The notes below the pieces were generated by a model that saw only the letters and a program-made list of their open reading frames with translations, ran no database searches and had not been told where the DNA came from. Both the position numbers and the translations under genes were made by a program. A stretch of 34,256 nucleotides of DNA from an uncultured Gammaproteobacteria bacterium (GTDB taxonomy: Bacteria; Patescibacteriota; Patescibacteriia; Patescibacteriales; CAYMCJ01): the NCBI GenBank assembly GCA_964388985.1, contig CAYMCJ010000003.1, positions 1,190 to 35,445 of the forward strand, in the 5' to 3' direction. Each line of letters opens with the position of its first letter. The first letter of the stretch is position 1. Below are positions 910-24,304 of the stretch, piece after piece.

Positions 910-3431
<2,522 letters not shown>

Positions 3432-3550
3432 TATTATTTGTTTAATTTATTATAAATTAACACAAATTACTTTTTAAAAAATAAAATTACTATTATTTCT
3501 CCCTTATATTTATCATATTTTTGCGGGATTCTGTTAAATAAATCATTGTA

Positions 3551-4611: not shown

Positions 4612-4623
4612 TGTTATATTATT

Positions 4624-4778: not shown

Positions 4779-4781
4779 TGG

Positions 4782-4801
4782 ATTCCCGCTTTCGCGGGAA
4801 T
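4782..4801 (-). repeat. GC-rich 8-bp hairpin with GAAA loop
   Basis: Minus strand ATTCCCGC-GAAA-GCGGGAAT. No adjacent T-run, so it is not a canonical terminator. It generates the spurious FPRKRES peptide in ORF 4708-4908. Confidence 0.6.
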
Positions 4802-4904
4802 GACAATAGTGAGACATTAACATTATTAAGCTGTAAAAAATTTTTACCATAAAATTTAAAAACCATATAGCCATATAACAATATAATCATATAGCAATAA
4901 AATT

Positions 4905-5486
4905 TCAATCAATGACATCAATTAATCCTAAAAAATTAACTTCAATCGTTTTTACGGATTCCCCGTCGCTTAATTCTATTTGCACCAAATTATTATTAGA
5001 ACCGCTACTGTCAATAATCCAAATGATTGGGTCGGGCGGCTCAAAACTAATATCAGCCGAACTACCGCTTCCAATAATAATATCATTTATTTTAACGCCG
5101 GCCGGCAAGCTTATTGTCTCGTATTCTTCGGTTAGTTGATTACAAATTCCGTCTCCGTTAACATCGGCAAAAACAATATAATTTTCCGGGTCTAAAACAG
5201 AAAAATGTATTCCCCACCCTCCCTTAGGGGCGTCACTATCAAATTTTTTCAGACCAAGGGAATAATTCTGGGCAAATCTTATGTCGCTGGCCAATTTTTG
5301 GGCGGACATAATCAGTTCAGACCGCTTCTTTGTGCCATGATAATTAGCCAAAAAAAGACTGGAAATCATCGCAATAATGGAAATTCCCACTACAAATTCA
5401 ATAAGCGAAAAACCACGCCTCTCATTCTTTAAAAAAATACTAAATTCAGAGAAAAAAAATTTTTTGTTTTTAATTTTTGTATCCAT
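4905..5486 (-). CDS. Prepilin-type minor pilin (GspH/FimT-like)
   Basis: 193 aa. G|FSLIE motif and a hydrophobic helix, then SAQKLASDIRFAQNYSL, which resembles GspH/FimT-type pseudopilins. A TATAAT lies 5 nt upstream of the ATG. Confidence 0.65.
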   Translation of the reverse strand: MDTKIKNKKFFFSEFSIFLKNERRGFSLIEFVVGISIIAMISSLFLANYHGTKKRSELIMSAQKLASDIRFAQNYSLGLKKFDSDAPKGGWGIHFSVLDPENYIVFADVNGDGICNQLTEEYETISLPAGVKINDIIIGSGSSADISFEPPDPIIWIIDSSGSNNNLVQIELSDGESVKTIEVNFLGLIDVID

Positions 5487-6084: not shown

Positions 6085-7326
6085 TTATTTAACCTCTCTC
6101 CATTTCGGTAAATCAGGACATGGATTTATTGACACTGTTTCGCTGGATATTCCTTCTGTTTCCGCGACTACTTTATAATAATATATCATTCCCGACCCGA
6201 TATTATTATCTTCATATTCATAATTACTTTGGCCGGAAACATAATCAACTGTAGCTATCGGACTGCCCCACGGCTCCGCTCCTGTCTGATTTCTAAAAAT
6301 TTTATAATAATCAATCCCTGAACCGATTTGTGTCCAGGTTAAAACAACCCGGTCACAATTAAAATCAGTTATACCGCCCAAAACCGGGGGACAGTAACTT
6401 GTGGCTCCGCTGGCAATATTGCTCCAGTCAGAATCATTACCGCCTTCGCCCAGCGCCTTAACCCGAAAATCATAAATTGTGCTTGGCGGCATAGAAATTA
6501 TGCAATAATTTACATTAATGCCCGTGCTACAACCCGACAAATTATCCCAAAAACTTCCGCCGTCACTACTATACTGACCTTGAAATCCTATTTCATTGTC
6601 GGAATTATCAGTCCAGGTAAGCCGCATAACAGTGCACTCGGAAGCATTGGCCGTTAGATTCGTCGGCGCCAACGGAACCGGACTGTCATAAATTACTTTA
6701 TAATCGGAGCTGGCGCAAGAACTATCATTTAAACAATTAAAACTAATCCAACCGACTCCAGTATCGTTGTCATTCCTGTTCCAGGCCCAACCGCTAAACT
6801 CGCCTGAAACATTGTCAATTATTGTCCCATCGCTCCAGCTACCGCTCATTTTAATCCAGCCGTCATCTCCTAAGGACAAAATTTTTGCCCAGCCGATAAC
6901 TACCTCCGTTACTCTGTCATAATTTGTTGAATTCGGGGGAAAACCGGGGTAAGGCGCGTCAGGAGAAAAATCTATCCAACCGACATTGGAGCTCCAGGCA
7001 TAACCGGAAAAATTCCCTGTTACCGGGTCAATACTTACTCCATAATCAAATGCCCGGATGGTTGAATTGTCGCCCCCGCAACCATTAACCATCGCATCGG
7101 TATCAACAAACCCATTATCGTCCGTATCACAATCCGTTGAATTAAAACTAATCCAGCCATAATTTTCGCTCCAGGCAAAGCCGGAAATATTATCGTTCGC
7201 GCTGGCCTCGGCAATTTCATAATCGTTCTGGAATTTATAAAAAACAATACCCGAACTAATTAGTATCGCTAATAAAAAACACGCTAAGCCGATTATCCAA
7301 GTTTTTAGTTTAAAAAAATCACACAT
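6085..7326 (-). CDS. Membrane-anchored surface protein with GW aromatic repeats and two FN3-like modules
   Basis: 413 aa with an N-terminal TM helix. Four copies of a G(F/Y/W)AW-x(3-8)-GWI-x-(F/M) motif (GFAWSENYGWISF, GYAWSSNVGWIDF, GWAKILSLGDDGWIKM, GWAWNRNDNDTGVGWISF). Two fibronectin type III-like modules follow (APTNLTANA..LTWTD, PPVLGGIT..LTWTQ..YYKIFR). Confidence 0.7.
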   Translation of the reverse strand: MCDFFKLKTWIIGLACFLLAILISSGIVFYKFQNDYEIAEASANDNISGFAWSENYGWISFNSTDCDTDDNGFVDTDAMVNGCGGDNSTIRAFDYGVSIDPVTGNFSGYAWSSNVGWIDFSPDAPYPGFPPNSTNYDRVTEVVIGWAKILSLGDDGWIKMSGSWSDGTIIDNVSGEFSGWAWNRNDNDTGVGWISFNCLNDSSCASSDYKVIYDSPVPLAPTNLTANASECTVMRLTWTDNSDNEIGFQGQYSSDGGSFWDNLSGCSTGINVNYCIISMPPSTIYDFRVKALGEGGNDSDWSNIASGATSYCPPVLGGITDFNCDRVVLTWTQIGSGIDYYKIFRNQTGAEPWGSPIATVDYVSGQSNYEYEDNNIGSGMIYYYKVVAETEGISSETVSINPCPDLPKWREVK

Positions 7327-8274: not shown

Positions 8275-9315
8275 TTAACTTTCAATATTAAAACTTTTAA
8301 TAAACATATCAAAAATATTTTTATAAATCAGCGCGTCGTCAACTTCGGGTCCGTAGGTCAAAACAAAAAGGTATTCATTTTTAATATCCGACAAATAAAC
8401 TACCAGTTCGTCATCGCTTTTCAAGCCGTGCCAGCTATCAGTATCAATTATTTTACCCTCATCTATTTCATCAAGCTCAAACTGTTGTTTATACCAATCA
8501 TCAACCAACTGATTATCAACATTGGGACGCACAATTATTTGAAAAAAACTATTATCATCCGATTTAAACATAACCGAGTCCTCCCCGCCCATATTAATTT
8601 TCTGCCAGCCAAGAGGATAATATACATTGTAGCCGAATGTTTTATTATAATATTCCAAAATATTTTCATTATCAACCAACCTGCCTTTACCGGTTGGATT
8701 ATAAAAATTTATTAATTCGGTCAGGTCATCGTATCCGTCCCGGTCGCTATCTTTCATGGAGCTGCTGCACCCCAATAAAATTTCCTCTTTATCAAACAAA
8801 CCATCTCCGTCGCTATCCTCGTTGGTGACAATTGTGCCGGGTAAAGTTGAAGTTGCCTGAAAATCTATCTCGGGTTCCATGATTTTGTCGGTCGTGGTTG
8901 ATGTATCCGGCTCAATTAAAGTGGGTAGCCCTTCTTCGGTTGTGGTTGAACCGCTATCCTTCCCAGGGCTCTCTTGCTTATCATCGGAAAATTCTTCAGA
9001 CTTTTCTCCGGTATATGTTTCACTATCCTTATTAAGCGGCTCTTCTTTTTTCTCCGTAGAATTAAAAAAATAAAAATAAACCAAAATACTGGCAACAATA
9101 ATAAAAACTATTCCGCTAATAATAATAGCCGACCCGGCCCTTTTTGCTTTTTGAGACTGGGGATTTACAAATCGAAATTTTTCCGGCATCACATGGACGG
9201 CTATATTTTTATTAATTTTATCTTCGTATTCCTCTTCTTTTTTTTCATATTCCTCTTTTTTTGCTTCCTTTACGGTCTTGTTTCCAATTTCTTTCTTTTT
9301 AAAAAAATTAAACAT
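8275..9315 (-). CDS. Membrane-anchored protein with acidic linker and thrombospondin type 3-like Ca-binding repeats
   Basis: The track ORF runs to 9402, but its first 29 codons cross AT-rich repeat DNA, so M30 (MFNFFKKKE, 9315) is the likelier start. One TM helix (AIIISGIVFIIVASILVYFYFF), an S/T/E-rich linker, DSDGDGLFDKEE and DSDRDGYDDLTE repeats, and a C-terminal globular part. Confidence 0.65.
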   Translation of the reverse strand: MFNFFKKKEIGNKTVKEAKKEEYEKKEEEYEDKINKNIAVHVMPEKFRFVNPQSQKAKRAGSAIIISGIVFIIVASILVYFYFFNSTEKKEEPLNKDSETYTGEKSEEFSDDKQESPGKDSGSTTTEEGLPTLIEPDTSTTTDKIMEPEIDFQATSTLPGTIVTNEDSDGDGLFDKEEILLGCSSSMKDSDRDGYDDLTELINFYNPTGKGRLVDNENILEYYNKTFGYNVYYPLGWQKINMGGEDSVMFKSDDNSFFQIIVRPNVDNQLVDDWYKQQFELDEIDEGKIIDTDSWHGLKSDDELVVYLSDIKNEYLFVLTYGPEVDDALIYKNIFDMFIKSFNIES

Positions 9316-9391
9316 ATATTTTATATTAATAAACAACATCCAATGATCAAATTCCAAACAAATATCAATAATAAAATATTCAATACCAAAA

Positions 9392-9426
9392 CATTCATTC
9401 AATATTTAATAAATTAATATCCAATT
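9392..9426. repeat. Family B AT-rich repeat, second copy (inverted)
   Basis: cattcattcaatatttaataaattaatatccaatt. Confidence 0.65.
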
Positions 9427-9537: not shown

Positions 9538-10548
9538 CTAAGCCTGTTTGGGATTATATCCATTTTTTATTTCTTCACCGTCTAAATAACCGTCGCCGTC
9601 AGTATCGGCCTTAAGCGGATCGGTTTGGTATGTTTTAACTTCTTCATAATCGGATAACCCATCAATATCGGTATCAATTTTAAGAATATCGGTTCCAAAT
9701 CCCTCTTCTTCGCTATCCAATAAGCCGTCGCCGTCAGTATCTTTCTGACCTGTATAATCATCTCCAACTTCGTTTAACCCATCGCCAACTTCTTTATTGA
9801 TCGGCAGCTTCAGCAGTTTACCTTCTCCTTTGGGATTGTTTCCTGCTTTAATCTCTTCACCGTCTAAATAGCCGTCGCCGTCAGTATCGGCGTTAAGCGG
9901 ATCGGTTTGATATACCTTAACTTCTTCCCGGTCAAACAAGCCGTCGTCATCAGTATCAACGCTATTAATATCAATCCCCAATTCTTTTTCTTCTTCATCG
10001 GTTAAACCGTCGCCGTCGGTATCAAGCAATTTATTTTTTTCACTTTTTGGTTCTTCGGCTGTATTTTCGACGGTATCATAATTACTCTCGCCGCCGATAG
10101 CCTGATTATCGTCTTCGGCTTTATTAATATTATAGCTGTCTTCATTTTTCTGAAGCGGCGAAATAAAACTAAGCTTGCTTAAACCCCAAAAAATTATTAA
10201 AACACCCGCCAAAAGGCCCACTATCATTATAGCAAAAATAATAATCTTTTTCACGTTTTCTTTTTCCAATACATTTCTTTCTTTATAATCATTTTTTAAT
10301 CCCTGGCTTTCTAATGCTTTTAGTTTAAACAATCCCGGCTTTTCCCGGTCAGCATTTTTATCGGTCTCGGAAAAAATATCTTCAACCGGCCTATTTGATA
10401 AATTAGCCGCGCCTAACCGCGCCTTTTGATTATTTTCATTATTTAAAGGCTGCCCCGCGCTCTTTAACTCCGGTTTGACCAACCTATCGCCGACTATATC
10501 ATTTTTATTGTTTAAATTATCAAACATAAAATTTTTTATTAAAGACAA
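9538..10548 (-). CDS. Membrane-anchored thrombospondin type 3-like (DxDxDG) repeat protein
   Basis: 336 aa. One TM helix (IIIFAIMIVGLLAGVLIIFWGL), then six DTDGDG(L/Y)xDxEE-type repeats, with an internal duplication (VKVYQTDPLNADTDGDGYLDGEEIK / VKTYQTDPLKADTDGDGYLDGEEIK). Confidence 0.75.
   Translation of the reverse strand: MSLIKNFMFDNLNNKNDIVGDRLVKPELKSAGQPLNNENNQKARLGAANLSNRPVEDIFSETDKNADREKPGLFKLKALESQGLKNDYKERNVLEKENVKKIIIFAIMIVGLLAGVLIIFWGLSKLSFISPLQKNEDSYNINKAEDDNQAIGGESNYDTVENTAEEPKSEKNKLLDTDGDGLTDEEEKELGIDINSVDTDDDGLFDREEVKVYQTDPLNADTDGDGYLDGEEIKAGNNPKGEGKLLKLPINKEVGDGLNEVGDDYTGQKDTDGDGLLDSEEEGFGTDILKIDTDIDGLSDYEEVKTYQTDPLKADTDGDGYLDGEEIKNGYNPKQA
9572..9645. repeat. Intragenic 74-bp near-identical duplication, copy 1
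   Basis: tcttcaccgtctaaataaccgtcgccgtcagtatcggccttaagcggatcggttt... recurs at 9854-9927 (offset 282 bp). Confidence 0.8.
9854..9927. repeat. Intragenic 74-bp near-identical duplication, copy 2
   Basis: See 9572-9645. Confidence 0.8.
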
Positions 10549-10588: not shown

Positions 10589-11575
10589 CTACGGCCCAAT
10601 AAGGCAATAGGCCTGCTCCGGCGGAGTTACTAAATTAGCATAACCGGTTTCCAACACGGCGCATATTCTATAGGCCAAACCTTCGCTGTCCGCGATGTAA
10701 GTATACACAAAGCTGCCATTCGGCAAAACCGGAGGACTAGAAGTGGAAATTGTTCCGGCAAAACTTTTTTTGCTCTCATCCCAACAAGTAGTGACATTGT
10801 AGTTATAGGTCTGATTGCAATAAGAGGTTGTTGCCGGACAGCATTCTCCCATTTTATTAATCGGGTCAACCGGCATAATTATATCAAGTTCCTCGGCTAA
10901 TTCTTCCTGCCAACTCGGCCAAACTGATGTTGTTCTACTTGACAAGTATGTTCCGGCCTCCAATTTTGGATAATAACCATTAGTACTTGAGGCTATTTCT
11001 AAATTTATTTTAGTTTTGGCCAAATCAGCTAATCTTTTAGTATCACGAATAATTTTCGCTTTCTGACTTTGGCAATATTCACCAAGCGGACAATCCGAAT
11101 TGTAAATACATTTTTTTGTATTGGTTAACGAGCACTCTCCGGCGCCATAAATATCAAAAATATTATAATTAAATTTCCAATTGGAAATGAGATGACTAAT
11201 AATTTCCAAAGTTTCCTGCTGGGCATCCTGATTATACGAGATTAAATAAATATTGGTATAAAATTCATTATTATCGCTAATATTAGCTGCGTTAACATAA
11301 ACTGTCCTGCCTTCGCGCACTGCTTCATATCCGTCAACAATTAATGATTGCGTAGAGCCGGAAAAACCTTGTTTTTCATACCAAAGCAAGGGAGAATAAT
11401 GTTCCGGGTTGGGAACTACCCGCACGGCAATGGCGTCAAAACTGCTTTCCGCCAAAACATCATTTGTATTTGTATTTTCCGGATAACAAAAAAATAAAGC
11501 AAAAAACAACAGCAATATTAAAAATAACATTTTAACGCTTAATTTAATTTTACTTTTTGACAAATTAAATCTCAT
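10589..11575 (-). CDS. Secreted Cys-rich hypothetical protein
   Basis: 328 aa. Signal-peptide-like N-terminus (MLFLILLLFFALFFCYP) and a Cys-rich mature part. No enzyme motif recognised. It lies 21 nt downstream of the 2052-aa gene. Confidence 0.65.
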   Translation of the reverse strand: MRFNLSKSKIKLSVKMLFLILLLFFALFFCYPENTNTNDVLAESSFDAIAVRVVPNPEHYSPLLWYEKQGFSGSTQSLIVDGYEAVREGRTVYVNAANISDNNEFYTNIYLISYNQDAQQETLEIISHLISNWKFNYNIFDIYGAGECSLTNTKKCIYNSDCPLGEYCQSQKAKIIRDTKRLADLAKTKINLEIASSTNGYYPKLEAGTYLSSRTTSVWPSWQEELAEELDIIMPVDPINKMGECCPATTSYCNQTYNYNVTTCWDESKKSFAGTISTSSPPVLPNGSFVYTYIADSEGLAYRICAVLETGYANLVTPPEQAYCLIGP

Positions 11576-11596
11576 AAACCAAATTTTAGGTTCTTA

Positions 11597-14500
11597 TTAA
11601 TCTTCCGGGGTTGCATTTTTTTCTTCTGTCGAATTGCTTTCGGACCCGTCAAGACTGATTGATTTAACTATAAAATAATAGGTTGAATTATTTATTAAAT
11701 TATTAATAATCTGCGGATTGACGGCTGTCCCGGGCGTACTGGTGGGAACCTCCTGAGTATACGGTCCACCCTCGGCTAAACCATAATAAATATTATATTC
11801 CGCCACGCCAACGCCGTCGCAACTCCAGGTCAATTCAGCTTCTCCGTTGCCGCCAACAATGCTTAAATTATTCGGAAAACTAAACGGTCTGGCGCTAACT
11901 TCATTTGAAAAATCAATATTTTCATACCAATCCGCATTGACTGATTTTACCGCAAAATAATAAGTCAGGCCGTTTGTCAAGCCGCTAATAATCTGTGGGC
12001 TGACGGCTGTCCCGGGCATAACACTTTCCTCATGATTGCTATAATTACCCGGATTCAAGCCATAATAAATATTGTAGCCACCAGCTCCGTCAGCCGCCTC
12101 CCAGCTTAATTTTATTTCCTGGTCTCCAATTTTAACAACACTAAATCCGCTAACAGAGGAAAATGGAATGGCTGATTCATAATCAATATCGCTTTCATTG
12201 CCATAAATATCATAACCAACTATACCAAAACAATATTCTACGCCGTTCATAAGACCGGACACGCTTGTTGTATTAATAGCGGTCGCGCCGGGCATGGCCG
12301 GTGCTGAAGCTCCAAATTTTACACTTTCATCACATATACCGCTTTTAGCTTTATAATAAATCCTAAAACTAATTGCATCACCATGGCTATTATCTTCCCA
12401 CACTACATCAACCTTGCTATCTTTCGGAGTTATAGAATCAATAACCGGGCCGTCAGGAGATTCAGTATCTTTTGGGGTGGCGGAAACCTCGTTTGAATAT
12501 TCGCTTTCAGCTCCGCTGGCATACTCGGCCGTAATCACAAAATAATAAGTTGTGTTATTAGTTAAATTATCAACAATAAACGGAATGACGGGTGAATGCG
12601 CCCGAGGGGTAGAAGTTGAATACGAATAAGAGCCAGAATTAATCCCGTAATATATATTATATTTATCCAAAATCTCACCGGCCGGAGGCGTAATCCCACT
12701 CCAAATTAAGGCCGCCTTATTTCCCTGCGCCAAAGATGAATTGGTGGTAGTAGCCAAATTTATCCCCGAAGCATTTGGTAATTCTTCCCTGAAAAAATAG
12801 GACTCTTTTAATAAACTATATTCACAAAAACCTTCCCCGCAAATATCTCCAACCCCCTGGCCGATACAATTATATTGAGAATCGGTACATTCCAAATTAG
12901 CGCCTCTTATAATGGTGTCGTCGCTTAAAATTGCGGGCAAATCATCGGCTGTGCCAAATCCGCCTGAATCACGGCAATAATATAATTCATAATTGGTGTT
13001 GAAGCAGCCCTGGTCAGAAATAGTGCAGTTAGCGGCCGTATCTTGCCACGGTGCCCAGGTACCGTCATCTCTGATTGGCGGCCAAGGATTCTCGCAAACA
13101 AATACTCGCACCGTTGATGTGCCCGTCTTAGAGCCTCCTCCGGAAACATTAGCGGTAGCATTAATAAAGGTTTTGCCATCGGTAACGCCGCTTTGCGCTA
13201 TAATTAACTGCGAACTGCTGGCGCTATCAAAAGGAACATTGGCGGGAAACATATAGGCGGAGGTTGTGGCTACAATACTTCTATTGTCTATTGACCAAAT
13301 CCAATCCCACCACCGGCCTTCAACCGGCACAATAATCTGCCGGCCGGCCATCTCCGAAGCCGATGCCTTAGCAACAAAAACCTTATCACTGTCTTTAGCG
13401 GTATCAAAAGTAGGGTCATCTGGATTATAATCATTTTCATTAAGATCATTCTTTGTTGTCTGAAATAAATATGGATTTGGCTCTATTTCAACATCATTAA
13501 TCTGGCAAAAAGTGGCGTCATATTGCGTACTATAAGTAGTAAATTGCCAAATATATGAATTAGTAAAAGTCAAACCATTAAATTCGGAAGCATCGCTTAT
13601 GGGACTGCTGGTGGCATTCATGCCCACATCCCAATGGCTCAATACGCCGCTATTGCTATCTAAATCTTTATCTCCTTTTATAATAACATAATACTTCCTG
13701 GAGGCAGCCATTAATTTATTGGGAGAAAACGTTAATTTGGTCTTTTTGTTTGCTGTTTGTTCTCCGCTAACAACGCCTTCAATAGCGCAATAATTATGGT
13801 CAGGGTCAGACAGTTCGGCCAAAACGCTTTTTCCTCTAAATATTGAAATAAATTTATTTTTAAAAGTTCTGATAACTTTATTAAAAATTTTAACGAAAAT
13901 ATTTCTTTTGACCGGCAATTCTCCGTTAAAAGCCAAATAAACCGTCCCGCCGGGGCACATTTCCTCTTCGTAATCTCCGATAACAATTACATTGCCCGTA
14001 AAACTGTTTATATCCATTTTTTGGTCAAAAGTAGCCGATATCTGCGCATTACGGCAAACGCTATCGGTATTGTTGGCCGGCATAATGTTTTCTATATAAG
14101 GTCTGGTTCGGCAGCAGGTATCAGAGCCACAACCAGCAGCCTCAATGTCTCCGCAATGACTATCTTGACCGCAGCCGCAACAAAGCCCGCGCTCATCAGT
14201 CTGAGCAGTACAGGGTTCAATGTTTGACTGGCATTTTAACTTTGTTGTCGCGTCTCCGGTAACAATCTCTCCGCATTTATCATCACCCGGGTCGCAACAG
14301 CAACGACAATCAGAGCCCGATTTGTCCAAACAATCCAAATATTCACCGCAACTATCCAAGCCGGTCTGGCACATGGGCGGGTCAAGGGTTTTTTTACATT
14401 CTGCTCCTATGGGATAAGCCGGCCCGGCAATACATTTCGCTTCACAAGTGCTGGTGGCCGTAAATACCCTGCCGGTAGAACTGGCTATTTTAATATAATC

Positions 14501-17500
14501 AGGAAATAATCCATAACACCCATTGGCAAAATTTTCATCGCAGCGATAATAAGCGCAATAATAATCAGTTGCATTGGCCGCTCCCTCTAATTCTTGAAAA
14601 CCCGACTCTCCCTTGCAATTATCAAAATTCATCGCGTCAACACAACAGGTAGTATGATGAAACGAACATAAATTAGTAGTTGACAACTGATTACAATCAC
14701 TGCAAATACCGTCGGGGTAGCCATCGCCGTCATTGTCATCACCGACATTAACATCACAAAATTTTCCAGTGCTGGTAGTACAATTACAGGCCTGGTCTGA
14801 TAAAATTTGTTCTGTGGCCGATATGGCTCCATCTCCATTGCTGTCAATCCGGCAACCGGAACAATGTCCATAAGTATTGGTATCAACACTGGCCGCGTCA
14901 CTGCCGCAATTTCCCGTACAACTTAAAGTGGCGCAACAATCCTGACTGGCATTACTAATCCGGCAGCAGCATTCGCACTGGTTGATAGGAGTATTATACT
15001 CGCATATATCTGAATTACAGCTTGAGCCGGCCGGACATACTTCCCCGCCGATATAGCACTTGCCTTGATTGTCCGCCGCTCCCTCCGCTTCACAGTCAAA
15101 ACCACTGCTGCACGGATTACAGACTTGAGGGGTTGACGGGGTTAAGGCTGGGTCTACCAGGGTACACCAGCCGTTAACAGCCAATTCCCAATTGCTATTG
15201 GGGCAGCTTTTTAGCCCGGGATTAATCTGCCAATAATAATTGGCTCCAACCTGTCGGCATTGAGCGCCGGTATAACCGGCCGGCAAACTGATAGAGTCGC
15301 CGCCAATCGCAAATGAGGCCCCTTCGTAAACAGAGCAGGCGGTTGTTAGAGCGCCACTATCCGCTCGGCATTTATTGGCTAACGCGTCAAAGACGCAATT
15401 GGTCCCGCATTGGCTGCCATATCTGTCGCTACAATAATTATTGCCGCAAACGCCGGCGCTGGTTATACGCCCCAGGCTGCATTGTCCTTTGGAATTTGGG
15501 CAAAACTCATTTTCGGCGCAATGGCCGGTTTGCAAAGCCCAGCCCAAACAGCTTTCGGCTGGAGTTGAAGGCGGCGTTGTTGAGCCGGTGCTAAAATCCC
15601 ATTCATAAACAGAGCTGGCTATCAAAGCATAACACTCATCAATGTCTGATTTGCATCTCCCTTTAAAAGTCCCGCCGGGACAACAAACATTACCAGTCCC
15701 GCAATGCTCGTCCTTGGTGCAGGTTCCAATATTAAAATTTAGGCCATTACCAGCTGTCCCCGATGAGCCTTTTACTATTCTAACCGGACCGCTTATAGCG
15801 TTCTGCTGAATAGTGGTGGTGACTTTATACGGCTTAATACCGGCCGTAACGTCAGGGTCCAGACCCCAAAAACCAATATTGACTCCGCCCTGGTCTTTAT
15901 TTAAATGAAACCTTACCTTGCTGTTTATATTGTCAAAAGTGTCAAAATATTCTCCCCATAAACTGATTAAATCATTATTTTGCCCCATAACCGGATCTAT
16001 TTTACATAAACTCGGAGTCAAGGTTAAGCCGCTGTCAACTTTAAATGAACTTGGGGTGGTGCTGCCGGTATCTATGGTCCAGGACCCAATTGTCATTGTT
16101 ATAGTATAATTTCCGCCAGCTAAACCCTCGGGTACTTTGATAATTACCTGGCTATCGCTCCAAAAACTATCAGCGCAAACATCGGGAAATTCATAGTTAG
16201 CCTTAATTCCGTTAATATTTCCAAAATAAACCTGGCTGGTTCCTTGTATATTTTTAAAACCAGTTCCATAAATTGTAACATACTGGCCGAATGTGCCTTG
16301 GACCGGGTCAAAAGAAGTAATATAGGGACCACTATACGGCTCGGCCTCTTTGGTAAAATTCAAATAATTGCTGATTGTATTATTGTTGCTTTTGATAAAA
16401 CTAGTGGTTTTCCCAACCTTAATGTTGGGAACATCCGCCCGGACGGTCATGGCGCCATTATATATAAAATTTAAACCATTGACATGGTTCGTATAATCGC
16501 CAAAATTAACAACGTCATTGCTTAATAAATTAATTCCATAATAAGCAACCGTATCATTCATAATCCCATGATTGGGGTTTAATTTACAAAGTCCCGGTCT
16601 TGATATGCTATTTACTAAAAAATCAGATATAGACGGGCCAATATTGTCATTGGTTGCATCTTCTCCGTTTTCAGCCGTTATTTTAATCGGACCCTTGGCA
16701 GCTCCGTTTGGCACCACGACCACAACCTGACTGTCGGTCCAACTGGTATCACAGTTAGGGTTGGCCGAACTGGCCAGTTGAGCCTCAATAAACCCGGTTC
16801 CGTTCCAAAATGAGATGGTGCTGGTGCCTTCTGAATATTCTTGAAAATATCTTCCTCTGACTGCAACTAAATTTCCTACGGCCCCGTTTGGAGTAGTTGT
16901 ATTGCAAGTTGAAGGAGCGAGGCCCGAACAGTCGCCATTGCTTTGACAGGGTAAATTTATATCCCCATCACAAAATCCGCCCGTAGGGCTTACGTTCTCA
17001 ATTACAGGGTTGCCCAGACAAATACAGCCTTCCTCAATATCGCAATGCAGGTAAGCGCCGCATAAATTATCATCCGTCTGACAAGCGGCCGTGCCGATAT
17101 CGCTGTCACAATCATCGCCGTAGCCGCCGCCGTCTTTACAAATGCAAGCCCCGGCATCGCAATATTGCCCGTCGGCGCAGGCGGTATTGTCCGCCTGACA
17201 ACCGAGTTCCATAGTATTTCCATCGCATGATACCGGCGAAACCGGCCCGCAGGAAGCGCAAACTAAACCGGCGCAAGACCCCCAATAACCGCTGGCCTGA
17301 CAGGTTCTTGTTCCCTGACTGATTACTCCGCACAAGCAGCTTCCACAAGATTGGGTGGCGCCAATCGGACTGCATGATTCCATATAAGGTGTTACTGCTT
17401 CTGATAATTTATTCAAAACAAAACTGACGATTGCGAAAGCGGATAAAATTATTATTAATCCAATTATCGCCCCGGTTAACAACTTTTTGGCCTTTTCAAC

Positions 17501-17755
17501 CTTTTCCGCGTTTCCTTCCGAAGTCATATACAGCCAGCCGCCGTAAATTATCAAACCAACCGCGATAATTCCCAAAAATCCCAGGGCTATCCTGATAATA
17601 TTTACGGCTACTGTCCGCGGGTCTGTTTCTCCCAACCCGATATTCTGGCCATAGCCAACACCCACGTCAACTTCTGCCAAAACGAAATCAGCTATTACAA
17701 AAACAGATATAAAAACAGTAAATATAATTATAAAATTTTTAATTTTTTTAGACAT
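11597..17755 (-). CDS. Giant surface protein: pilin-like two-helix N-terminal anchor + Cys-rich, IPT/TIG, Ig-like and FN3 modules
   Basis: An uninterrupted 2052-aa ORF. The N-terminal signal/TM is followed by the hairpin IALGFLGIIAVGLIIYGGWLYMTSEGN..AIIGLIIILSAFAIVSF. Three IPT/TIG-like modules (PVIENVSPTGG, PYITSFDPVQG, PSLCKIDPVMG). A central Cys-rich core with CxCCC motifs. An SbsA/Big_5-like Ig module (RPYIENIMPANN). Four C-terminal FN3 modules. Confidence 0.85.
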   Translation of the reverse strand: MSKKIKNFIIIFTVFISVFVIADFVLAEVDVGVGYGQNIGLGETDPRTVAVNIIRIALGFLGIIAVGLIIYGGWLYMTSEGNAEKVEKAKKLLTGAIIGLIIILSAFAIVSFVLNKLSEAVTPYMESCSPIGATQSCGSCLCGVISQGTRTCQASGYWGSCAGLVCASCGPVSPVSCDGNTMELGCQADNTACADGQYCDAGACICKDGGGYGDDCDSDIGTAACQTDDNLCGAYLHCDIEEGCICLGNPVIENVSPTGGFCDGDINLPCQSNGDCSGLAPSTCNTTTPNGAVGNLVAVRGRYFQEYSEGTSTISFWNGTGFIEAQLASSANPNCDTSWTDSQVVVVVPNGAAKGPIKITAENGEDATNDNIGPSISDFLVNSISRPGLCKLNPNHGIMNDTVAYYGINLLSNDVVNFGDYTNHVNGLNFIYNGAMTVRADVPNIKVGKTTSFIKSNNNTISNYLNFTKEAEPYSGPYITSFDPVQGTFGQYVTIYGTGFKNIQGTSQVYFGNINGIKANYEFPDVCADSFWSDSQVIIKVPEGLAGGNYTITMTIGSWTIDTGSTTPSSFKVDSGLTLTPSLCKIDPVMGQNNDLISLWGEYFDTFDNINSKVRFHLNKDQGGVNIGFWGLDPDVTAGIKPYKVTTTIQQNAISGPVRIVKGSSGTAGNGLNFNIGTCTKDEHCGTGNVCCPGGTFKGRCKSDIDECYALIASSVYEWDFSTGSTTPPSTPAESCLGWALQTGHCAENEFCPNSKGQCSLGRITSAGVCGNNYCSDRYGSQCGTNCVFDALANKCRADSGALTTACSVYEGASFAIGGDSISLPAGYTGAQCRQVGANYYWQINPGLKSCPNSNWELAVNGWCTLVDPALTPSTPQVCNPCSSGFDCEAEGAADNQGKCYIGGEVCPAGSSCNSDICEYNTPINQCECCCRISNASQDCCATLSCTGNCGSDAASVDTNTYGHCSGCRIDSNGDGAISATEQILSDQACNCTTSTGKFCDVNVGDDNDGDGYPDGICSDCNQLSTTNLCSFHHTTCCVDAMNFDNCKGESGFQELEGAANATDYYCAYYRCDENFANGCYGLFPDYIKIASSTGRVFTATSTCEAKCIAGPAYPIGAECKKTLDPPMCQTGLDSCGEYLDCLDKSGSDCRCCCDPGDDKCGEIVTGDATTKLKCQSNIEPCTAQTDERGLCCGCGQDSHCGDIEAAGCGSDTCCRTRPYIENIMPANNTDSVCRNAQISATFDQKMDINSFTGNVIVIGDYEEEMCPGGTVYLAFNGELPVKRNIFVKIFNKVIRTFKNKFISIFRGKSVLAELSDPDHNYCAIEGVVSGEQTANKKTKLTFSPNKLMAASRKYYVIIKGDKDLDSNSGVLSHWDVGMNATSSPISDASEFNGLTFTNSYIWQFTTYSTQYDATFCQINDVEIEPNPYLFQTTKNDLNENDYNPDDPTFDTAKDSDKVFVAKASASEMAGRQIIVPVEGRWWDWIWSIDNRSIVATTSAYMFPANVPFDSASSSQLIIAQSGVTDGKTFINATANVSGGGSKTGTSTVRVFVCENPWPPIRDDGTWAPWQDTAANCTISDQGCFNTNYELYYCRDSGGFGTADDLPAILSDDTIIRGANLECTDSQYNCIGQGVGDICGEGFCEYSLLKESYFFREELPNASGINLATTTNSSLAQGNKAALIWSGITPPAGEILDKYNIYYGINSGSYSYSTSTPRAHSPVIPFIVDNLTNNTTYYFVITAEYASGAESEYSNEVSATPKDTESPDGPVIDSITPKDSKVDVVWEDNSHGDAISFRIYYKAKSGICDESVKFGASAPAMPGATAINTTSVSGLMNGVEYCFGIVGYDIYGNESDIDYESAIPFSSVSGFSVVKIGDQEIKLSWEAADGAGGYNIYYGLNPGNYSNHEESVMPGTAVSPQIISGLTNGLTYYFAVKSVNADWYENIDFSNEVSARPFSFPNNLSIVGGNGEAELTWSCDGVGVAEYNIYYGLAEGGPYTQEVPTSTPGTAVNPQIINNLINNSTYYFIVKSISLDGSESNSTEEKNATPED

Positions 17756-17776
17756 TATTTTGAAATCCTAAACTTA

Positions 17777-20437
17777 TTACGGGCAGCTACTGTCGGGCGT
17801 TAATGTTCCGCTACAGCATGACGGCAAATAATCATTGGCTCCGAAACAGGCCGGCCCGGCGCTTGGCTTAAAACAATTTTGATAAATATCTTTGACTCCA
17901 GAACCCGCCTGCGTCCTGTAACTGGTAGCATCGGAAAATAATGAATGTCTTATATATACCTTAGTCCAATCCGCCTCCCCATCGGGCGGGGCGTTGTCAA
18001 TATTTTCTTTGGCTATCCAGTAACCAAGCGGATCGCTGGTAAAATTCCATATATTTAACAATTGATGCAAAATATTCTCCTGACCGTTAAAAATATAAGT
18101 GCTGCCTGTTTTTAAACTGCTTGACATCATTAACTCCGGCTTAGCATTATTATTAAAATCAATCTCCACCGGTTCGGATAATGAAACTCCCGCGCTATTA
18201 TGGGCCGGTCCGGTTGAAGTGATAACCGGCGGGGTTAAATATATTTTATCATTAATAAAAAATGACCATTTGTAATTATCGCCGAATGAAGAATCGGGCG
18301 AGTTCTCATTATAAAAACTAACCGGACCGTCCGCATCAAAATCCCTGTTTCCATCCAAAGAATTTAAAGCCGCGTCCATAATGCCATCCAAAGGTAAACT
18401 GGCCAAAGGATAATTTGTTCCATTACTATTCTGACAAACCGTATGGCAGGTATTAAACGGCGTTCTGGTTGAACAATCATTGTCGCTGGCGCAGGCGTCT
18501 AAATTAGCGGCCACCAATTCCATTTTTAAATTGCTGTTTTCCGGCAGACAGTAAATATCCTCCCCGCAGGCATTAACTCCGCATTTATTATCACTTATAA
18601 ATTCAACTGTCCGATAGATATTGGAAATCATAAATTTCCCCTTTAGGCATGCCTCTCCGTTACATTGAAAAAAATCATCGCCGCTGCAATTTCCGGAAAC
18701 ACATATTACCCTGATATAATCCTTAATATCTTCCGCTTCTCCGGAAACCGTTATCGGCATAATCGCTTCATTAAAATTCGCCTGAATAATGGCATTCCTT
18801 GATTTATCCTCCCGGCCATTAACTTTGGTGGTTGTTTCTATATCCACTCCGCCCGACATGGCTTTAATTTCAAAAGCGCCGCCGGTATTAGAAGCTGAAT
18901 TATATAGACTGCTTGAGGTTAAAGCTATATTGTTGCTGGCTGAATTGGCCGCTCGGGCCGTAATGGCCACAATATTACCGGTCGCCAAAGTAAAAACATC
19001 CGGATGAATTGGCGAACCGGCCGAGCCGATGGCAGTCTGAATATTAATGGCCGTATTATTAACCGTTATTCCTTGCTGAATTTGGTTTCCGCTTGGAGTG
19101 CCGGAAACAAAAGTATAAACAGTATTTCCAACCGTTAAAGTATCCGATTGTTTTTCCGCGCTCACTCCTATGGTCCAGCTATTGCCGATTGCAAAGCTAC
19201 CATCAGTCGGAGCCAGGGTAAGTCCGCAACCCAAAGAAGCTATGTTATCGCTAACATCATCACCGCTGACCAGGCCGGTTATACCGCCAACGTTGGCTGT
19301 GTTTGGAGTGCCGGCGGAAATGGAAACCGTTATTGTACCGTCCGCTTGACAATTATAAGTCCCACTGACCGCGGCGCTCTCACTCCCGCCCTGCGGGATT
19401 ACCGCTCCGACAACCGCCGACTGATAAATATTAGGATTATTTTTAACAACAATACTGCCTCTGGCCTGCTGAGCCGGCGTAGTAGTGCTAACTTCATCCA
19501 TTTCATTGTCAGGCGCCGGAAATACCCCGCCTAATTTAACCTGAGGCGGGGTTAAATCAATCTTGTTGCTAATCTCAAAATTCCACTCAAAGTAGTCGGT
19601 CCGACAATTCTTAAAAACCGGCTGACCATCTTTTTTAAGAATATCATTGGATAAATAAACAGAGTACCAAATATATTCAGAGGCCGAGCCCAAATAATTT
19701 ATTGGCATAAACACAAATGTCTTTTTGTCTTTGGTTATAACATTTACTTCGGTAACCTGGCTGTTGCAAGGGCCGTCTTCAAGACAAACGTCTCTCTCGT
19801 TGGTATGAAATATTTTAATATTATCACTTACAATATTATCATCGCCATCGCAAATATCTTTTCCGCAAATCGTTTTTAAATCAATTTCTTCTTTAAAAGT
19901 AACTATTATAATCGTATTTCTGGGAACTTCCGGATTAGTCTGGCCGGGTTCGGGATAAACAGACTCAAGCGAGCAAGCTCCTAGGGCTCCCAATCCGCCA
20001 GGGGTACCCGGGGGACCGGGCGGACCGGGAGAAGAAACGCTTTCGCTAAGCAATTTGCTAATAATAAAACTAACAATTGCAAAAGCGGATAAAATTATTA
20101 TTAAGCCAATGATCGCATTTTTTAGAACTCTCTTGGCGACTAATATTTTCTCTTCATTGCCTCCGCTGGTCATCCACAGCCAGCCGCCGTAAATTATTAT
20201 TCCGACTGTTACAATTCCTATAAAACCAAGGGCTATTTGAACAATCCTGGCCGCTATAACTCTGGGGTCATCTTTGCCTAAACCGATTTTATCAGCATAT
20301 TCCGCTCCCACATTTACCGCCGCCAAACAAAAATTAGGCAATAAAAAAATAACCATAAACAATATAAAAATTGCAAATATGGTTATTTTTACTCTATTAT
20401 ACTTAATTTTATTTATTAAAAAATTTAATTTTAACAT
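17777..20437 (-). CDS. Large surface protein with the same pilin-like N-terminal anchor, Ig-like modules and Cys-rich C-terminus
   Basis: 886 aa. The first ~120 aa are paralogous to the 2052-aa neighbour. A Gly/Pro linker follows (PGPPGPPGTPGG), then Big_5/SbsA-like segments (SLESVYPEPGQTNPEVPRNTIIIVTF) and a Cys-rich tail ending SCCSGTLTPDSSCP. Confidence 0.85.
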   Translation of the reverse strand: MLKLNFLINKIKYNRVKITIFAIFILFMVIFLLPNFCLAAVNVGAEYADKIGLGKDDPRVIAARIVQIALGFIGIVTVGIIIYGGWLWMTSGGNEEKILVAKRVLKNAIIGLIIILSAFAIVSFIISKLLSESVSSPGPPGPPGTPGGLGALGACSLESVYPEPGQTNPEVPRNTIIIVTFKEEIDLKTICGKDICDGDDNIVSDNIKIFHTNERDVCLEDGPCNSQVTEVNVITKDKKTFVFMPINYLGSASEYIWYSVYLSNDILKKDGQPVFKNCRTDYFEWNFEISNKIDLTPPQVKLGGVFPAPDNEMDEVSTTTPAQQARGSIVVKNNPNIYQSAVVGAVIPQGGSESAAVSGTYNCQADGTITVSISAGTPNTANVGGITGLVSGDDVSDNIASLGCGLTLAPTDGSFAIGNSWTIGVSAEKQSDTLTVGNTVYTFVSGTPSGNQIQQGITVNNTAINIQTAIGSAGSPIHPDVFTLATGNIVAITARAANSASNNIALTSSSLYNSASNTGGAFEIKAMSGGVDIETTTKVNGREDKSRNAIIQANFNEAIMPITVSGEAEDIKDYIRVICVSGNCSGDDFFQCNGEACLKGKFMISNIYRTVEFISDNKCGVNACGEDIYCLPENSNLKMELVAANLDACASDNDCSTRTPFNTCHTVCQNSNGTNYPLASLPLDGIMDAALNSLDGNRDFDADGPVSFYNENSPDSSFGDNYKWSFFINDKIYLTPPVITSTGPAHNSAGVSLSEPVEIDFNNNAKPELMMSSSLKTGSTYIFNGQENILHQLLNIWNFTSDPLGYWIAKENIDNAPPDGEADWTKVYIRHSLFSDATSYRTQAGSGVKDIYQNCFKPSAGPACFGANDYLPSCCSGTLTPDSSCP

Positions 20438-20493: not shown

Positions 20494-20502
20494 ATTATAC
20501 CA
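20494..20502 (-). promoter_or_regulatory. Candidate extended -10 promoter for the surface-protein module
   Basis: Minus strand TGgTATAAT, about 55 nt upstream of the 886-aa ORF start. Confidence 0.4.
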
Positions 20503-20529
20503 TAAATTAAACTTAAGGGGCAAATAAAA

Positions 20530-23422: not shown

Positions 23423-23506
23423 AAAAAATTGTTATAATCTGACTTATGCCTTAAAATGAAATTAAATAATATTTAATTAAACGTCTACCTAAAATTATAT
23501 AATTAT

Positions 23507-23599
23507 CTACGAATTACGAATGTTTTACAAATCTACAAACACTAACGCAAACGTCTCAACTAATATTTGTAAATTTGTACTTAATTTGTAATTCGTGGC
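23507..23599. repeat. Family A inverted doublet (gene-less)
   Basis: ctacgaattacgaatgttttacaaatctacaaaca, a 22-nt spacer, then tatttgtaaatttgtacttaatttgtaattcgtggc. The right arm differs from 498-534 at one base. Confidence 0.8.
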
Positions 23600-23707
23600 T
23601 GATAAATTCAGACAAACGCGCAAGTCAATCAATCAATGTATTCTGTTTATATCTTACCTTATTTTTATAACCTTGTTAAGGCTAAATCCCAAAAATAAGC
23701 CCGATTG

Positions 23708-23736
23708 TTGACAAAATTTAATATTATTGCTATACT
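23708..23736 (+). promoter_or_regulatory. Near-consensus sigma70 promoter
   Basis: TTGACA, exactly 17 nt, TATACT. It sits 36 nt upstream of family C copy 1 and ~240 nt upstream of the zinc-ribbon ATG. Confidence 0.65.
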
Positions 23737-23771
23737 GCCAACATAATTAAATAATGTTTACGTTCTTTTTA

Positions 23772-23938
23772 AGGGACTGCCACCAAATGCCATTTTGGCT
23801 ACAATTTATAAAAATCCGGCCAAATTTTCCCAAAAATTTTTTAGCTTATATTTTTCATATAAACCTCAAAATTTATTGAAAAAATTTGTCTTGAATTTTT
23901 AAAATTTCGCGGCAAAAGCGCATTTGGCGGCAGCCCCT
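23772..23938 (+). repeat. Family C stem-closed ~165-nt element, copy 1 (upstream of the zinc-ribbon gene)
   Basis: Arms agggactgccaccaaatgc (23772-23790) and gcatttggcggcagcccct (23920-23938) pair at 17/19 positions and enclose an AT-rich interior. Confidence 0.75.
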
Positions 23939-23975
23939 ATTAACTAAATTTTCGTAAACAACACAAGAAAAGTAA

Positions 23976-24146
23976 ATGGATAACAAAGATTATTCCGGCG
24001 GACGCCCGATGGTTAAAGGAAACTGGACCTGTTCCAAATGCGGAGCGGAAATCACAGAACTTCCTTTTGAACCGGACGGAGAAAGACCGCTTTATTGCCG
24101 AGATTGCCATCAGCAAATGAGGCAAAGTCGTCCCAGACGATTCTAA
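23976..24146 (+). CDS. Small CxxC...CxxC zinc-ribbon protein (56 aa, not in ORF track)
   Basis: Hand translation: MDNKDYSGGRPMVKGNWTCSKCGAEITELPFEPDGERPLYCRDCHQQMRQSRPRRF. The C-x2-C / ELPF.P....RP.YC.DC layout matches the CxxC-x17-CxxC domain family common in CPR (here x18). It is followed by an intrinsic terminator and preceded by a consensus promoter. Confidence 0.75.
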   Translation: MDNKDYSGGRPMVKGNWTCSKCGAEITELPFEPDGERPLYCRDCHQQMRQSRPRRF

Positions 24147-24223
24147 TTATCGCCAGACGATTTACAAGAAACATATTATTTAGATAACTTTATTATCATC
24201 TAATATATTTCGAGAAAACGAAA

Positions 24224-24252
24224 GCCGCGCTTAGAGCGCGACTTTTGTTTTT
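24224..24252. terminator. Bidirectional intrinsic terminator (zinc-ribbon gene / ABC operon)
   Basis: CGCGCT-tag-AGCGCG is followed by acttttgttttt, with a T-rich tract on the other strand too. Confidence 0.7.
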
Positions 24253-24260
24253 GAAATATA

Positions 24261-24297
24261 TATTTGTAAATTTGTAGCTGATTTGTAAATTCGCAGG
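24261..24297. repeat. Family A solo arm next to the ABC permease stop codon
   Basis: tatttgtaaatttgtagctgatttgtaaattcgcagg. A very degenerate partner may lie near 24151-24185. Confidence 0.65.
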
Positions 24298-24304
24298 AAA
24301 ATCG

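Follow-up and report, generated by a model that had tools for sequence, protein, structure and literature searches.

Two pilin-headed genes and their surroundings

The window, that is, the whole stretch of DNA analysed (34,256 nucleotides), contains two tandem genes for pilin-headed surface proteins, and all the features of both lie on the minus strand. Gene S (17777..20437) is an ORF of 886 aa and gene L (11597..17755) an ORF of 2052 aa, each starting with a signal peptide and then a hairpin of two helices, as described in the initial annotation. The Pfam domains identified were T4SS_pilin and two copies of Big_5 in S, and T4SS_pilin, two TIG, one Big_5 and three fn3 in L, in agreement with the domain mixes given there. 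In the AF2 models the signal-peptide helix is followed by a helical hairpin, which a disordered linker joins to a beta-rich body.

In S the signal peptide (20321..20437, approximately aa 1-39) comprises a basic n-region and a hydrophobic h-region, with predicted cleavage after C-L-A and before A; in the model, aa 15-32 form a helix. The signal peptide is followed by the pilin hairpin (20042..20266, aa 58-132; PF18895 match at aa 60-125), with AF2 helices at aa 58-89 and 95-132, and by a Pro/Gly-rich flexible linker (19994..20041, aa 133-148) of sequence SSPGPPGPPGTPGGLG, with pLDDT below 50 and low conservation (0.31). The remainder is the predicted extracellular body (17780..19993, aa 149-886), a string of Ig-like beta-sandwich domains, Big_5 among them, modelled as all-beta with pLDDT mostly above 90 (mean of S, 88). 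The Foldseek neighbours of the full S model were FMG-1B, cadherins, ClfA and MpIBP, all of them generic Ig-chain or adhesin proteins, so that no specific ligand or function can be inferred from them.

In L the signal peptide comprises aa 1-27 (17675..17755; predicted cleavage after V-L-A and before E), the pilin hairpin aa 46-124 (17384..17620; PF18895 match at aa 48-113), with helices at aa 46-78 and 83-124 modelled at pLDDT 90-97, and the predicted extracellular body aa 125-2052 (11600..17383). A TIG domain was located at 16040-16327 (aa 477-572), Big_5 at 13976-14107 (aa 1217-1260) and the three fn3 domains in the C-terminal part, the best of them at 11930-12157 (aa 1867-1942). Cys-rich blocks occupy approximately aa 100-300 and 700-1300, the whole protein containing 111 Cys. 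The L body has no homologue by sequence in the PDB, and the two bodies do not align with each other, as was stated before (best BLASTP E=0.019). The C-termini of the two proteins are ...CCSGTLTPDSSCP and ...EEKNATPED, and an LPXTG motif, a hydrophobic segment and a basic tail are absent from both; neither protein matches the N_methyl motif (PF07963) of class III signal peptides. From their domain types, S and L are putative adhesin-like surface proteins.

Upstream of S, the best promoter-like site is located at 20494..20523 (minus strand; TTGCCC-18-TATAAT with TG in front, by consensus match only), within the divergent spacer common to S and relA/spoT. Downstream of L by 21 nt is a conserved gene for a secreted Cys-containing protein of 328 aa (10589..11575, minus strand), with no Pfam or NCBIfam match, which is syntenic and present in 28 related loci despite the short flank fetched. 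Next are a membrane-anchored protein with bacterial TSP3 (Ca-binding) repeats (9538..10548, minus strand; PF18884, E=4.7e-28), syntenic as well, and a membrane protein of 375 aa with a single span and a TSP3-like acidic motif (8275..9402, minus strand), followed by ybeY and dagK. These same genes are found downstream of the S-L pair in related genomes. The N_methyl motif was identified in separate genes of the window (3551-5486); any association of the pair with the type IV pilin-like genes at 2997-5486 was rejected, since these were syntenic with it in 0 of the 84 related loci fetched. Rfam and tRNA scans of the window were empty.

Family and topology of the heads

Against the profile PF18895 (T4SS_pilin), an accession that the initial annotation gave correctly, the full proteins scored 33.0 bits (L) and 29.2 bits (S) and the heads alone 37.7 and 33.7 bits, all above the curated Pfam gathering score of 26.6 bits taken as threshold, with a match spanning profile positions 7-71 of 71. 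PF18895 was also matched by 76 of 76 close head relatives. Thirty of these 76 also matched PF04956 (TrbC/VirB2; best E=3.5e-7), and a relative with eight hairpins reached 51.2 bits with this profile (cut-off 27.9). The head is therefore a genuine member of the T4SS_pilin/VirB2-like family, and the N-terminal modules of S and L are, by sequence, VirB2/TrbC-superfamily pilin hairpins of PF18895. The heads of S and L in the window gave no match to PF04956 at E<=1, and in NCBIfam only a sub-threshold match to NF045849, a mycoplasma ICE pilin-like family. The Foldseek comparison of the head model with the PDB returned generic helical hairpins only and no pilin in the top 50 (best E=0.099), a helical hairpin being too simple to discriminate, and the profile search of PDB sequences with the head had no match, so that neither links the hairpin to a solved conjugative pilin; these two results weigh on neither side of the pilin reading.

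The orientation of the head was assessed in 114 family heads. The residues at -3/-1 of the cleavage site follow the pattern A/V-x-A, and position -1 is Ala in 102 of the 108 heads in which it is occupied; the mature N-terminus is acidic (D+E 3.15 vs K+R 1.10), the hairpin loop is basic (K+R 3.75) and helix 2 is uncharged. By these statistics and the AF2 models, S and L present a signal peptide and two hydrophobic helices with a short basic loop, N-out/C-out, and the predicted topology places both bodies outside the cell and not in the cytoplasm. In this topology each protein carries a type-I signal peptide that, once cleaved, leaves an acidic mature N-terminus outside; helix 1 spans inward, the short Lys-rich loop is cytoplasmic and helix 2 spans outward. 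Because the C-terminal end of helix 2 is out in this orientation, the Ig-like/TIG/FN3/Cys-rich body, of about 80 kDa in S or 200 kDa in L, projects from the cell. A helical hairpin whose termini are both outside and whose loop is inside (lumen-facing in the pilus) is shared with VirB2/TrbC/TraA (PF04956) and with the archaeal CedA1/TedC pilins. Canonical conjugative pilins, however, are proteins of 7-12 kDa, and the heads of S and L match neither their profile nor, by sequence or Foldseek, any solved pilin. The C-terminus of F-pilin is not known to tolerate more than short peptide tags.

The linker of S bears on a reading that we consider highly improbable, in which the hairpin would only guide secretion and the body would be cut at the linker and released or passed to the cell wall, like an autotransporter or a processed pro-protein. 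The flexible, poorly conserved Pro/Gly segment directly after helix 2, and an in-frame stop that falls precisely between head and body in one related contig, are consistent with such a cut. L, however, lacks a comparable linker and runs straight into its Cys-rich domain, neither a conserved protease site nor a linked protease was identified, and Sec export needs the signal peptide alone.

Conservation of the pair and concerted evolution of the heads

S and L form end-to-end conserved orthologous families in a syntenic pair. The S family comprises 419 database homologues, the best 120 being all full length with 42-82% identity, and the L family 562, with lengths of 1462-2718 aa among the 120 listed. 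Among the 80 species-level genomes recovered, from Falkowbacteria and Buchananbacteria (class ABY1), about 57 have the S-then-L tandem, and the pair in the window is, on sequence grounds, a conserved and chromosomally fixed one of an ABY1-class (Falkowbacteria-like) patescibacterium.

The first head-only homology search, based on a word index, returned only proteins of 96-215 aa. That the fusion is rare was rejected as an artefact of this search and of truncated contigs, several of the 'short' matches continuing into S- or L-type bodies. By exhaustive search most close heads are fused to large bodies: 107 of the 150 closest head representatives exceed 500 aa, 47 of the 150 having an S-type and 63 an L-type body, the rest being short or multi-hairpin proteins. 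Four to eight tandem hairpins were found in single ORFs, which suggests that hairpins pack side by side. The nearest apparent stand-alone pilin, P0001, proved to be an S-type fusion broken by one in-frame TAA, the stop already mentioned, and so does not speak for a small major pilin cognate to the pair. The variable body and cassette exchange suggested by the initial annotation had to be abandoned, as the closest head relatives carry only S- and L-type bodies, each inherited vertically.

The other suggestion made there, that the heads undergo gene conversion or evolve in concert, is supported at the family level by quartets, codons and identical runs. The heads of S and L in the window share 68 of 113 residues (60%; BLASTP E=8e-41), and the earlier hand counts were reproduced exactly: 54 of 79 identical residues from IGLG to KL, 38 of 41 nt between 17430-17470 and 20076-20116, and 20 of 20 between 17531-17550 and 20177-20196, the two copies lying 2646 nt apart in both cases. 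The longest stretch of identity shared by these two heads is 23 nt; runs of at least 23 nt occur in 12% of the within-genome S/L head pairs vs 0.3% of the between-genome ones. Identity of S and L heads is 0.60 within a genome vs 0.47-0.49 between genomes, and in a quartet test of 1596 genome-pair comparisons 1498 were concerted, 97 orthologous and one cross. At identical residues, codon identity is 0.50 vs 0.42 expected (z of about 9.5, our own calculation, at the family level), the synonymous-site excess in within-genome S/L heads being significant for the family. In the window alone 34 of 63 codons are identical vs 27.4 expected, a marginal difference from which recent gene conversion within this pair is not demonstrable. 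The within-genome likeness could be explained by gene conversion alone, without co-assembly, a point against joint assembly of the two proteins.

The excess within genomes is greatest in the short exposed mature N-terminus (0.59 vs 0.28) and almost nil in the core of the signal peptide (0.25 vs 0.20), which looks like selection on the mature module. Concerted evolution, by gene conversion, co-selection or both, probably keeps the hairpins of one genome alike. In the S family the hairpin is also the most conserved part, with a pairwise identity of 0.59, followed by the loop (0.55), the body (0.46) and the signal peptide (0.27).

These figures bear on a passive anchor, a double-pass hairpin recruited from a pilin gene with no T4SS interaction or oligomerisation, where the likeness of the heads would result from gene conversion between tandem paralogues. 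The conversion signal at the DNA level is what would be expected of it, and so are the lack of machinery linked to the pair, the frequent occurrence of PF18895 genes unlinked to VirB4 and the generic helical hairpin seen by Foldseek. Simple anchors evolve fast, though, and between genomes the hairpin and loop are more conserved than the folded body; such conservation is not explicable by gene conversion, and an excess centred on the mature N-terminus and hardly reaching the signal-peptide core speaks against this reading too, which we regard as improbable.

A proposed shared assembly module and its T4SS context

As the hairpin is the most conserved part and is kept alike within a genome, a shared assembly module is proposed. 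We infer from both properties that the hairpin is more than a passive anchor, and we give about even chances to S and L being an adhesin-like fibre-protein pair whose hairpin docks both into a pilin-type assembly. The hairpin would dock S and L together in one assembly, which could be a membrane-embedded pilin platform or else a short VirB2-like fibre in which S and L come first, as tip subunits, and to which small pilins and an unlinked VirB4 system contribute. Such an assembly would serve to display the bodies, so that they can attach to a host cell or surface.

The machinery for such a fibre is not found beside the pair. The window encodes no VirB4, VirD4 or VirB6-type protein, as noted from the start, and no T4SS gene is linked to the pair, either there or in the related loci annotated with Pfam. 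VirB4 is listed, unlinked to the pair, for five genomes that carry it (Table S1, PMC12102498), and one of them also contains TrsD, T4CP and several VirB2-like genes (Table S3, PMC12102498); the 'VirB2' entries of that table for GCA_000997945.1 have no protein lengths, and S and L cannot be mapped onto them. In the pilin arrays holding close small relatives of the head there is no VirB4 within 10 kb. In cultured Patescibacteria, genes with a T4SS-pilin domain rank among the most strongly expressed of those with unknown function (PMC10936435), and in the one genetically tractable patescibacterium epibiotic growth requires the T4SS and its pilin array (PMC10633639, PMC12857230).

Among the closest known systems are the small VirB2-like pilins and arrays of Patescibacteria (Wang et al. 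2023, PMC10633639; Quinonero-Coronel et al. 2025, PMC12102498), which share with S and L the family PF18895, the phylum, the tandem paralogues, the signal peptide, the two helices with a basic loop and the presence of VirB4 in genomes with the pair. They differ in size and position, with approximately 100-200 aa and often beside virB4, whereas S and L have large folded bodies and no T4SS linkage. Paralogues within those arrays have a mean identity of 25% and a maximum of 54%, below that of the S and L heads, which evolve in concert. In design, S and L resemble PilB and PilC of Streptococcus sanguinis (PMC8179133, PMC9934059), where a filament-entering pilin module is joined to a C-terminal adhesive module. 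Those modular type IV pilins, however, belong to a different filament superfamily, with a class III signal peptide, a single N-terminal helix and passengers of tens of kDa. Long strings of Ig-like or FN3-type beta-sandwich domains on a monoderm surface are also found in ClfA and Cna (LPXTG/MSCRAMM), the conjugation adhesin PrgB and the RTX ice-binding adhesin MpIBP, and Gram-positive fibrillar adhesins and MpIBP were among the Foldseek neighbours of the S body. These proteins, however, are anchored C-terminally (sortase/LPXTG) or by type I secretion retention, and in S and L an N-terminal pilin hairpin would be the anchor.

VirB2-type pilins are seen as small subunits (about 7-12 kDa), and in VirB2-type pili such as F and T the hairpin loop faces the lumen. 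Monoderm T4SSs were thought to lack VirB2-type pilins before the work on Patescibacteria. A doubtful alternative is that S and L are true modular pilins, taken out of the membrane by a VirB4 machine and assembled with small PF18895 pilins into an extracellular VirB2-type pilus that the bodies decorate, sparsely or at its tip, as host-binding adhesins. It draws on the family membership, the pilin-like topology with the C-terminus outside, the strong conservation of the hairpin including its loop, the VirB4 and small VirB2-like genes of genomes with the pair, and the precedent of modular type IV pilins in another filament type (PMC8179133). Against it, a tight helical pilus would have no steric room for a folded, disulfide-rich body of 80-200 kDa on each subunit, no small pilin or T4SS gene adjoins the pair, and the close small relatives in arrays lack a nearby VirB4. 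Neither has any T4SS pilus yet been observed in patescibacteria, a 2025 review speaking only of a 'potential' one (PMC12857230).

The initial annotation knew of no described system with this architecture. In the literature searched only small pilins are described and no paper was found on the fusion of a pilin hairpin to a giant body, or on the pair, so in this respect the statement stands; hundreds of homologues, however, were already in public databases, where automatic annotation calls them 'pilin', 'IPT/TIG domain-containing protein' or 'Ig-like domain-containing protein', among other names. Counts of 'VirB2 pilins' or 'pilin arrays' obtained with HMMs in Patescibacteria may include such giants. 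It is unlikely that in S and L we have the first VirB2-type pilins of a 'modular' kind, giant adhesins built into, or priming, a monoderm T4SS pilus through hairpins kept polymer-compatible by gene conversion; if true, this would be the host-contact organelle of a major ultra-small epibiotic bacterial group. The pair is a clean case of module-restricted concerted evolution, with heads homogenised within the genome and bodies orthologous, and it shows that passengers of very large size can be borne by a pilin hairpin. An adhesin-like pair of 80 and 200 kDa with the same pilin module is a concrete candidate for host contact in these organisms.

The S and L proteins and their common head

Two neighbouring genes of the minus strand, separated by a spacer of 21 nt, encode the proteins S (17777-20437, 886 aa) and L (11597-17755, 2052 aa), each formed by a head, comprising a signal peptide and a pilin-type helical hairpin, and a long body. 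G+C across both genes (11000-20000) is 0.41-0.47, markedly above the 0.30-0.37 of the flanking genes. The first 125-137 residues of the two proteins share 68 of 113 positions (BLASTP, E=8e-41), and a recount from IGLG to KL returned the 54 identities in 79 residues of the initial annotation; its two DNA stretches (38/41 and 20/20 nt) were also reproduced, at a constant offset of 2646 nt. As had been claimed, the bodies (~750 and ~1930 residues) cannot be aligned with each other (best E=0.019). The proposed assignment of the head to T4SS_pilin (PF18895) held in the Pfam search: S and L scored 29.2 and 33.0 bits as full proteins and 33.7 and 37.7 bits as heads alone, over a curated cut-off of 26.6 bits, and the match spans positions 7-71 of the 71 of the model. 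Besides this domain, S contains two Big_5 stretches and 25 cysteines; L contains two TIG stretches, one Big_5, three fn3 stretches and 111 cysteines.

The model of S, built with AlphaFold2 from 87 homologues (mean pLDDT 88), comprises a signal-peptide helix (residues 15-32), the hairpin helices (58-89 and 95-132), a Pro/Gly linker that is disordered (133-148) and a body rich in beta structure, made of Ig-like sandwiches. The head of L modelled alone presents the same hairpin (helices 46-78 and 83-124, pLDDT 90-97). Charges and cleavage sites were counted over 114 aligned heads of S and L proteins of related genomes. A/V-x-A occupies positions -3/-1 before the mature N-terminus; 108 heads have a residue at -1, and in 102 of these it is Ala. 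Acidic residues prevail in the mature N-terminal segment (D+E 3.15, K+R 1.10), the loop between the helices is basic (K+R 3.75) and helix 2 is uncharged. Under the positive-inside rule, the acidic N-terminus and the basic loop predict N-terminus out, loop in and C-terminus out, which is the topology of membrane-integral VirB2-type pilins. Such a C-terminus would place both bodies outside the cell, in agreement with domain types that are extracellular and with the many cysteines; the cytoplasmic body named in the initial annotation as fatal to its reading is not the predicted one. Sec export, signal-peptide cleavage, a hairpin with its loop inside and an external body can thus be read directly from the sequences.

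Distribution of the pair and evolution of the heads

The search with full-length S identified 419 homologues. The best 120 are 41-82% identical, mostly over the whole length, nearly all of 826-1002 aa, with five shorter or partial exceptions, and annotated with PF18895 and PF13205 in almost all cases. For L there were 562 homologues, of 1462-2718 aa among the 120 matches listed. In metagenome loci and in a scan that took a single genome from each species (80 loci), the conserved order is relA/spoT upstream and divergent, then S and L, followed 3' of L by a ~320-aa secreted protein, a TSP3-repeat protein, a ~375-455-aa membrane protein, ybeY and dagK. The S-then-L tandem was identified by ORF and HMM analysis in 59 loci, or 57 without two that duplicate the same protein. 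By record title the carriers are mostly Candidatus Falkowbacteria, along with Buchananbacteria and 'Parcubacteria/Patescibacteria group', and the named genomes that were looked up belong to class ABY1 (PMC12102498, Table S1). The pair is Patescibacteria-specific, yet many contigs that bear it are deposited as 'uncultured Gammaproteobacteria bacterium' (L006, L007, L011, L014 and many others), and the labels Chlamydiae, Methylomirabilis, Bacillota and Helarchaeota occur on single contigs; mislabelling or mis-binning of these records is probable. The window's closest relative, with an S of 82% identity, has a 128-aa PF05635 gene (23S_rRNA_IVP, four-helix-bundle) between S and L (L088:6536-6922, L089:6381-6767), where the window has just the 21-nt spacer.

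An exhaustive HMM search with the head profile over 1.84 billion representative proteins returned 47,348 matches at E<=1e-3 and 394 at E<=1e-30. Among the best 150, 107 exceed 500 aa; 47 carry an S-type body and 63 an L-type body, leaving 40 short proteins, fragments and ORFs with tandem hairpins. The head subfamily is tied to two vertically inherited body types, so that cassette exchange, an earlier suggestion, lacks support.

After a simple old duplication, an S head would be expected to resemble foreign L heads at least as much as the L head beside it. The heads instead evolve in concert. Mean S-L head identity is 0.60 within genomes; between genomes it is 0.47 for S-L, 0.49 for S-S and 0.48 for L-L. 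The four-sequence test over all genome pairs grouped S with L of the same genome 1498 times, orthologues 97 times and cross pairs once, the orthologous grouping winning only among close relatives (orthologue head identity above ~0.65). Codon identity at identical degenerate residues within genomes is 50.0% (1799/3597), against 42.2% expected from the codon usage of each genome and 39.9% in between-genome controls, with 44 of 57 genomes above expectation (z ~9.5, calculated from codon counts). Runs of at least 23 identical nt are present in 12% of head pairs within genomes, against 0.3% of controls; the longest one shared by the heads of the window is 23 nt. Gene conversion of the heads, as initially proposed, is therefore supported across the family, but the synonymous signal of the window alone is marginal (34/63 versus 27.4 expected). 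Selection probably contributes too, since the within-genome excess peaks in the short exposed mature N-terminus (0.59 versus 0.28) and is almost nil in the signal-peptide core (0.25 versus 0.20).

Genomic setting and type IV secretion genes

As first annotated, VirB4, VirD4 and VirB6 are absent from the proteins encoded in the window, as is any other T4SS protein, and the annotated related loci contain no T4SS genes. Other genes of the window are chromosomal housekeeping ones: GatC, LigA, YbeY, DAGK, RelA/SpoT, L11 and an ABC transporter. Four small type IV pilin-like genes lie in a row (2997-5486, minus), two with the N_methyl motif, one with a sub-threshold PilV-like match and one without any; they adjoin a 413-aa FN3 protein with repeated 'GWISFN/GWIDFS' motifs (6085-7326, minus), and neither is syntenic with the pair in related loci. 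An ORF of 210 aa (27139-27771, minus) contains an IS200-like Y1 transposase domain of which just the C-terminal half is present; it adjoins a DUF5677 gene (27898-28764, minus) where the window is most AT-rich (G+C 0.30), and may be what is left of a mobile element. The ~880 nt of 23423-24304 contain no ORF of at least 62 aa on either strand, no Rfam family and no tRNA.

Five pair-carrying genomes are all VirB4-positive (PMC12102498, Table S1): GW2011_GWC2_42_12, Falkowbacteria RIFOXYA2_FULL_47_19, Falkowbacteria CG23_combo_of_CG06-09_8_20_14_all_49_15, HGW-Falkowbacteria-1 and Buchananbacteria RIFCSPLOWO2_02_FULL_46_11b. The first has TrsD and VirB4 adjacent, two T4CP matches and six VirB2-like genes (PMC12102498, Table S3). 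The machinery is therefore present in these organisms, but unlinked to the pair. Close small relatives of the head (~50% identity) occur in arrays of 4-8 pilin genes adjoining solute-binding protein and sugar-nucleotide or glycosyltransferase genes, with no VirB4 within 10 kb. The model of canonical conjugative pilins, TrbC/VirB2 (PF04956), is matched by 30 of 76 close head relatives and not by the heads of the window; the sequence link to canonical pilins is indirect. Structure and sequence searches of the head against solved pilins gave no informative match.

Role of the hairpin

Pairwise identity in the S family is 0.59 in the hairpin, 0.55 in the cytoplasmic loop, 0.46 in the body, 0.31 in the linker and 0.27 in the signal peptide. 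Plain membrane anchors do not present this pattern, with hairpin and loop above the folded body, and gene conversion is not its source because conversion acts within a genome. The pattern points to a specific interaction of the hairpin, and a purely passive anchor, which would not rank above its body in between-genome conservation, is improbable. Eight poly-pilins of 427-820 aa (P0213, P0218, P0237, P0240, P0244, P0253, P0300, P0214) contain 4-8 tandem T4SS_pilin hairpins in single ORFs, being six PF18895 stretches in P0213 and eight in P0237, which scores 51 bits on TrbC/VirB2. These ORFs suggest that hairpins pack side by side; with N-out/C-out preserved in every hairpin, their concatenation is consistent with the topology.

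Of the apparent stand-alone pilins, P0001 (119 aa) is the closest, with 60% identity to the L head. It stops at a TAA directly past which an S-type Big_5-like body runs on in frame (L087:150-1187, single contig). An interrupted fusion, a pseudogene or a sequencing error could account for this arrangement, as, possibly, could read-through. On a Kerfeldbacteria contig, a run of four adjacent T4SS_pilin genes opens with one for a 269-aa protein (L086:8056-8865) that has a weak T4SS_pilin match and the peptidoglycan-binding domain PG_binding_1, a further kind of passenger for this type of head.

The hairpin would then be a shared assembly module drawing S and L into one pilin-type structure, which would present their bodies, long and composed of Ig-like, FN3 and Cys-rich parts, for attachment. 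It could be a platform embedded in the membrane, or S and L could be the first (tip) subunits of a short VirB2-like fibre. Assembly and anchoring mediated specifically by the hairpin has about an even chance of being correct. Genuine incorporation into a pilus is doubtful. A packed pilus decorated stoichiometrically with passengers of 80-200 kDa appears sterically implausible, and sparse or tip incorporation is the only version considered viable. Release of the body after cleavage is very improbable.

In the papers searched, patescibacterial VirB2-like proteins are described only as small pilins and pilin arrays, the latter essential in Southlakia epibionticum, and adhesins such as PrgB are stated to be undetected in their dataset (PMC10633639, PMC12102498, PMC12857230). 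T4SS-pilin-domain genes are reported to be among the most highly expressed unknown genes of cultured Patescibacteria (PMC10936435). The modular type IV pilin of Streptococcus sanguinis, a member of an unrelated filament superfamily, comes closest in design (PMC8179133). The literature searched contains no description of a pilin hairpin fused to a giant body, of the S/L pair or of its concerted evolution, so the initial statement that no such system was described stands for the publications searched, but the proteins were already in public databases under automatic names, 'pilin' among them. The S/L pair, with its function inferred from sequence alone, is a real and widespread one that bears on the contact of ultra-small epibionts with their hosts.
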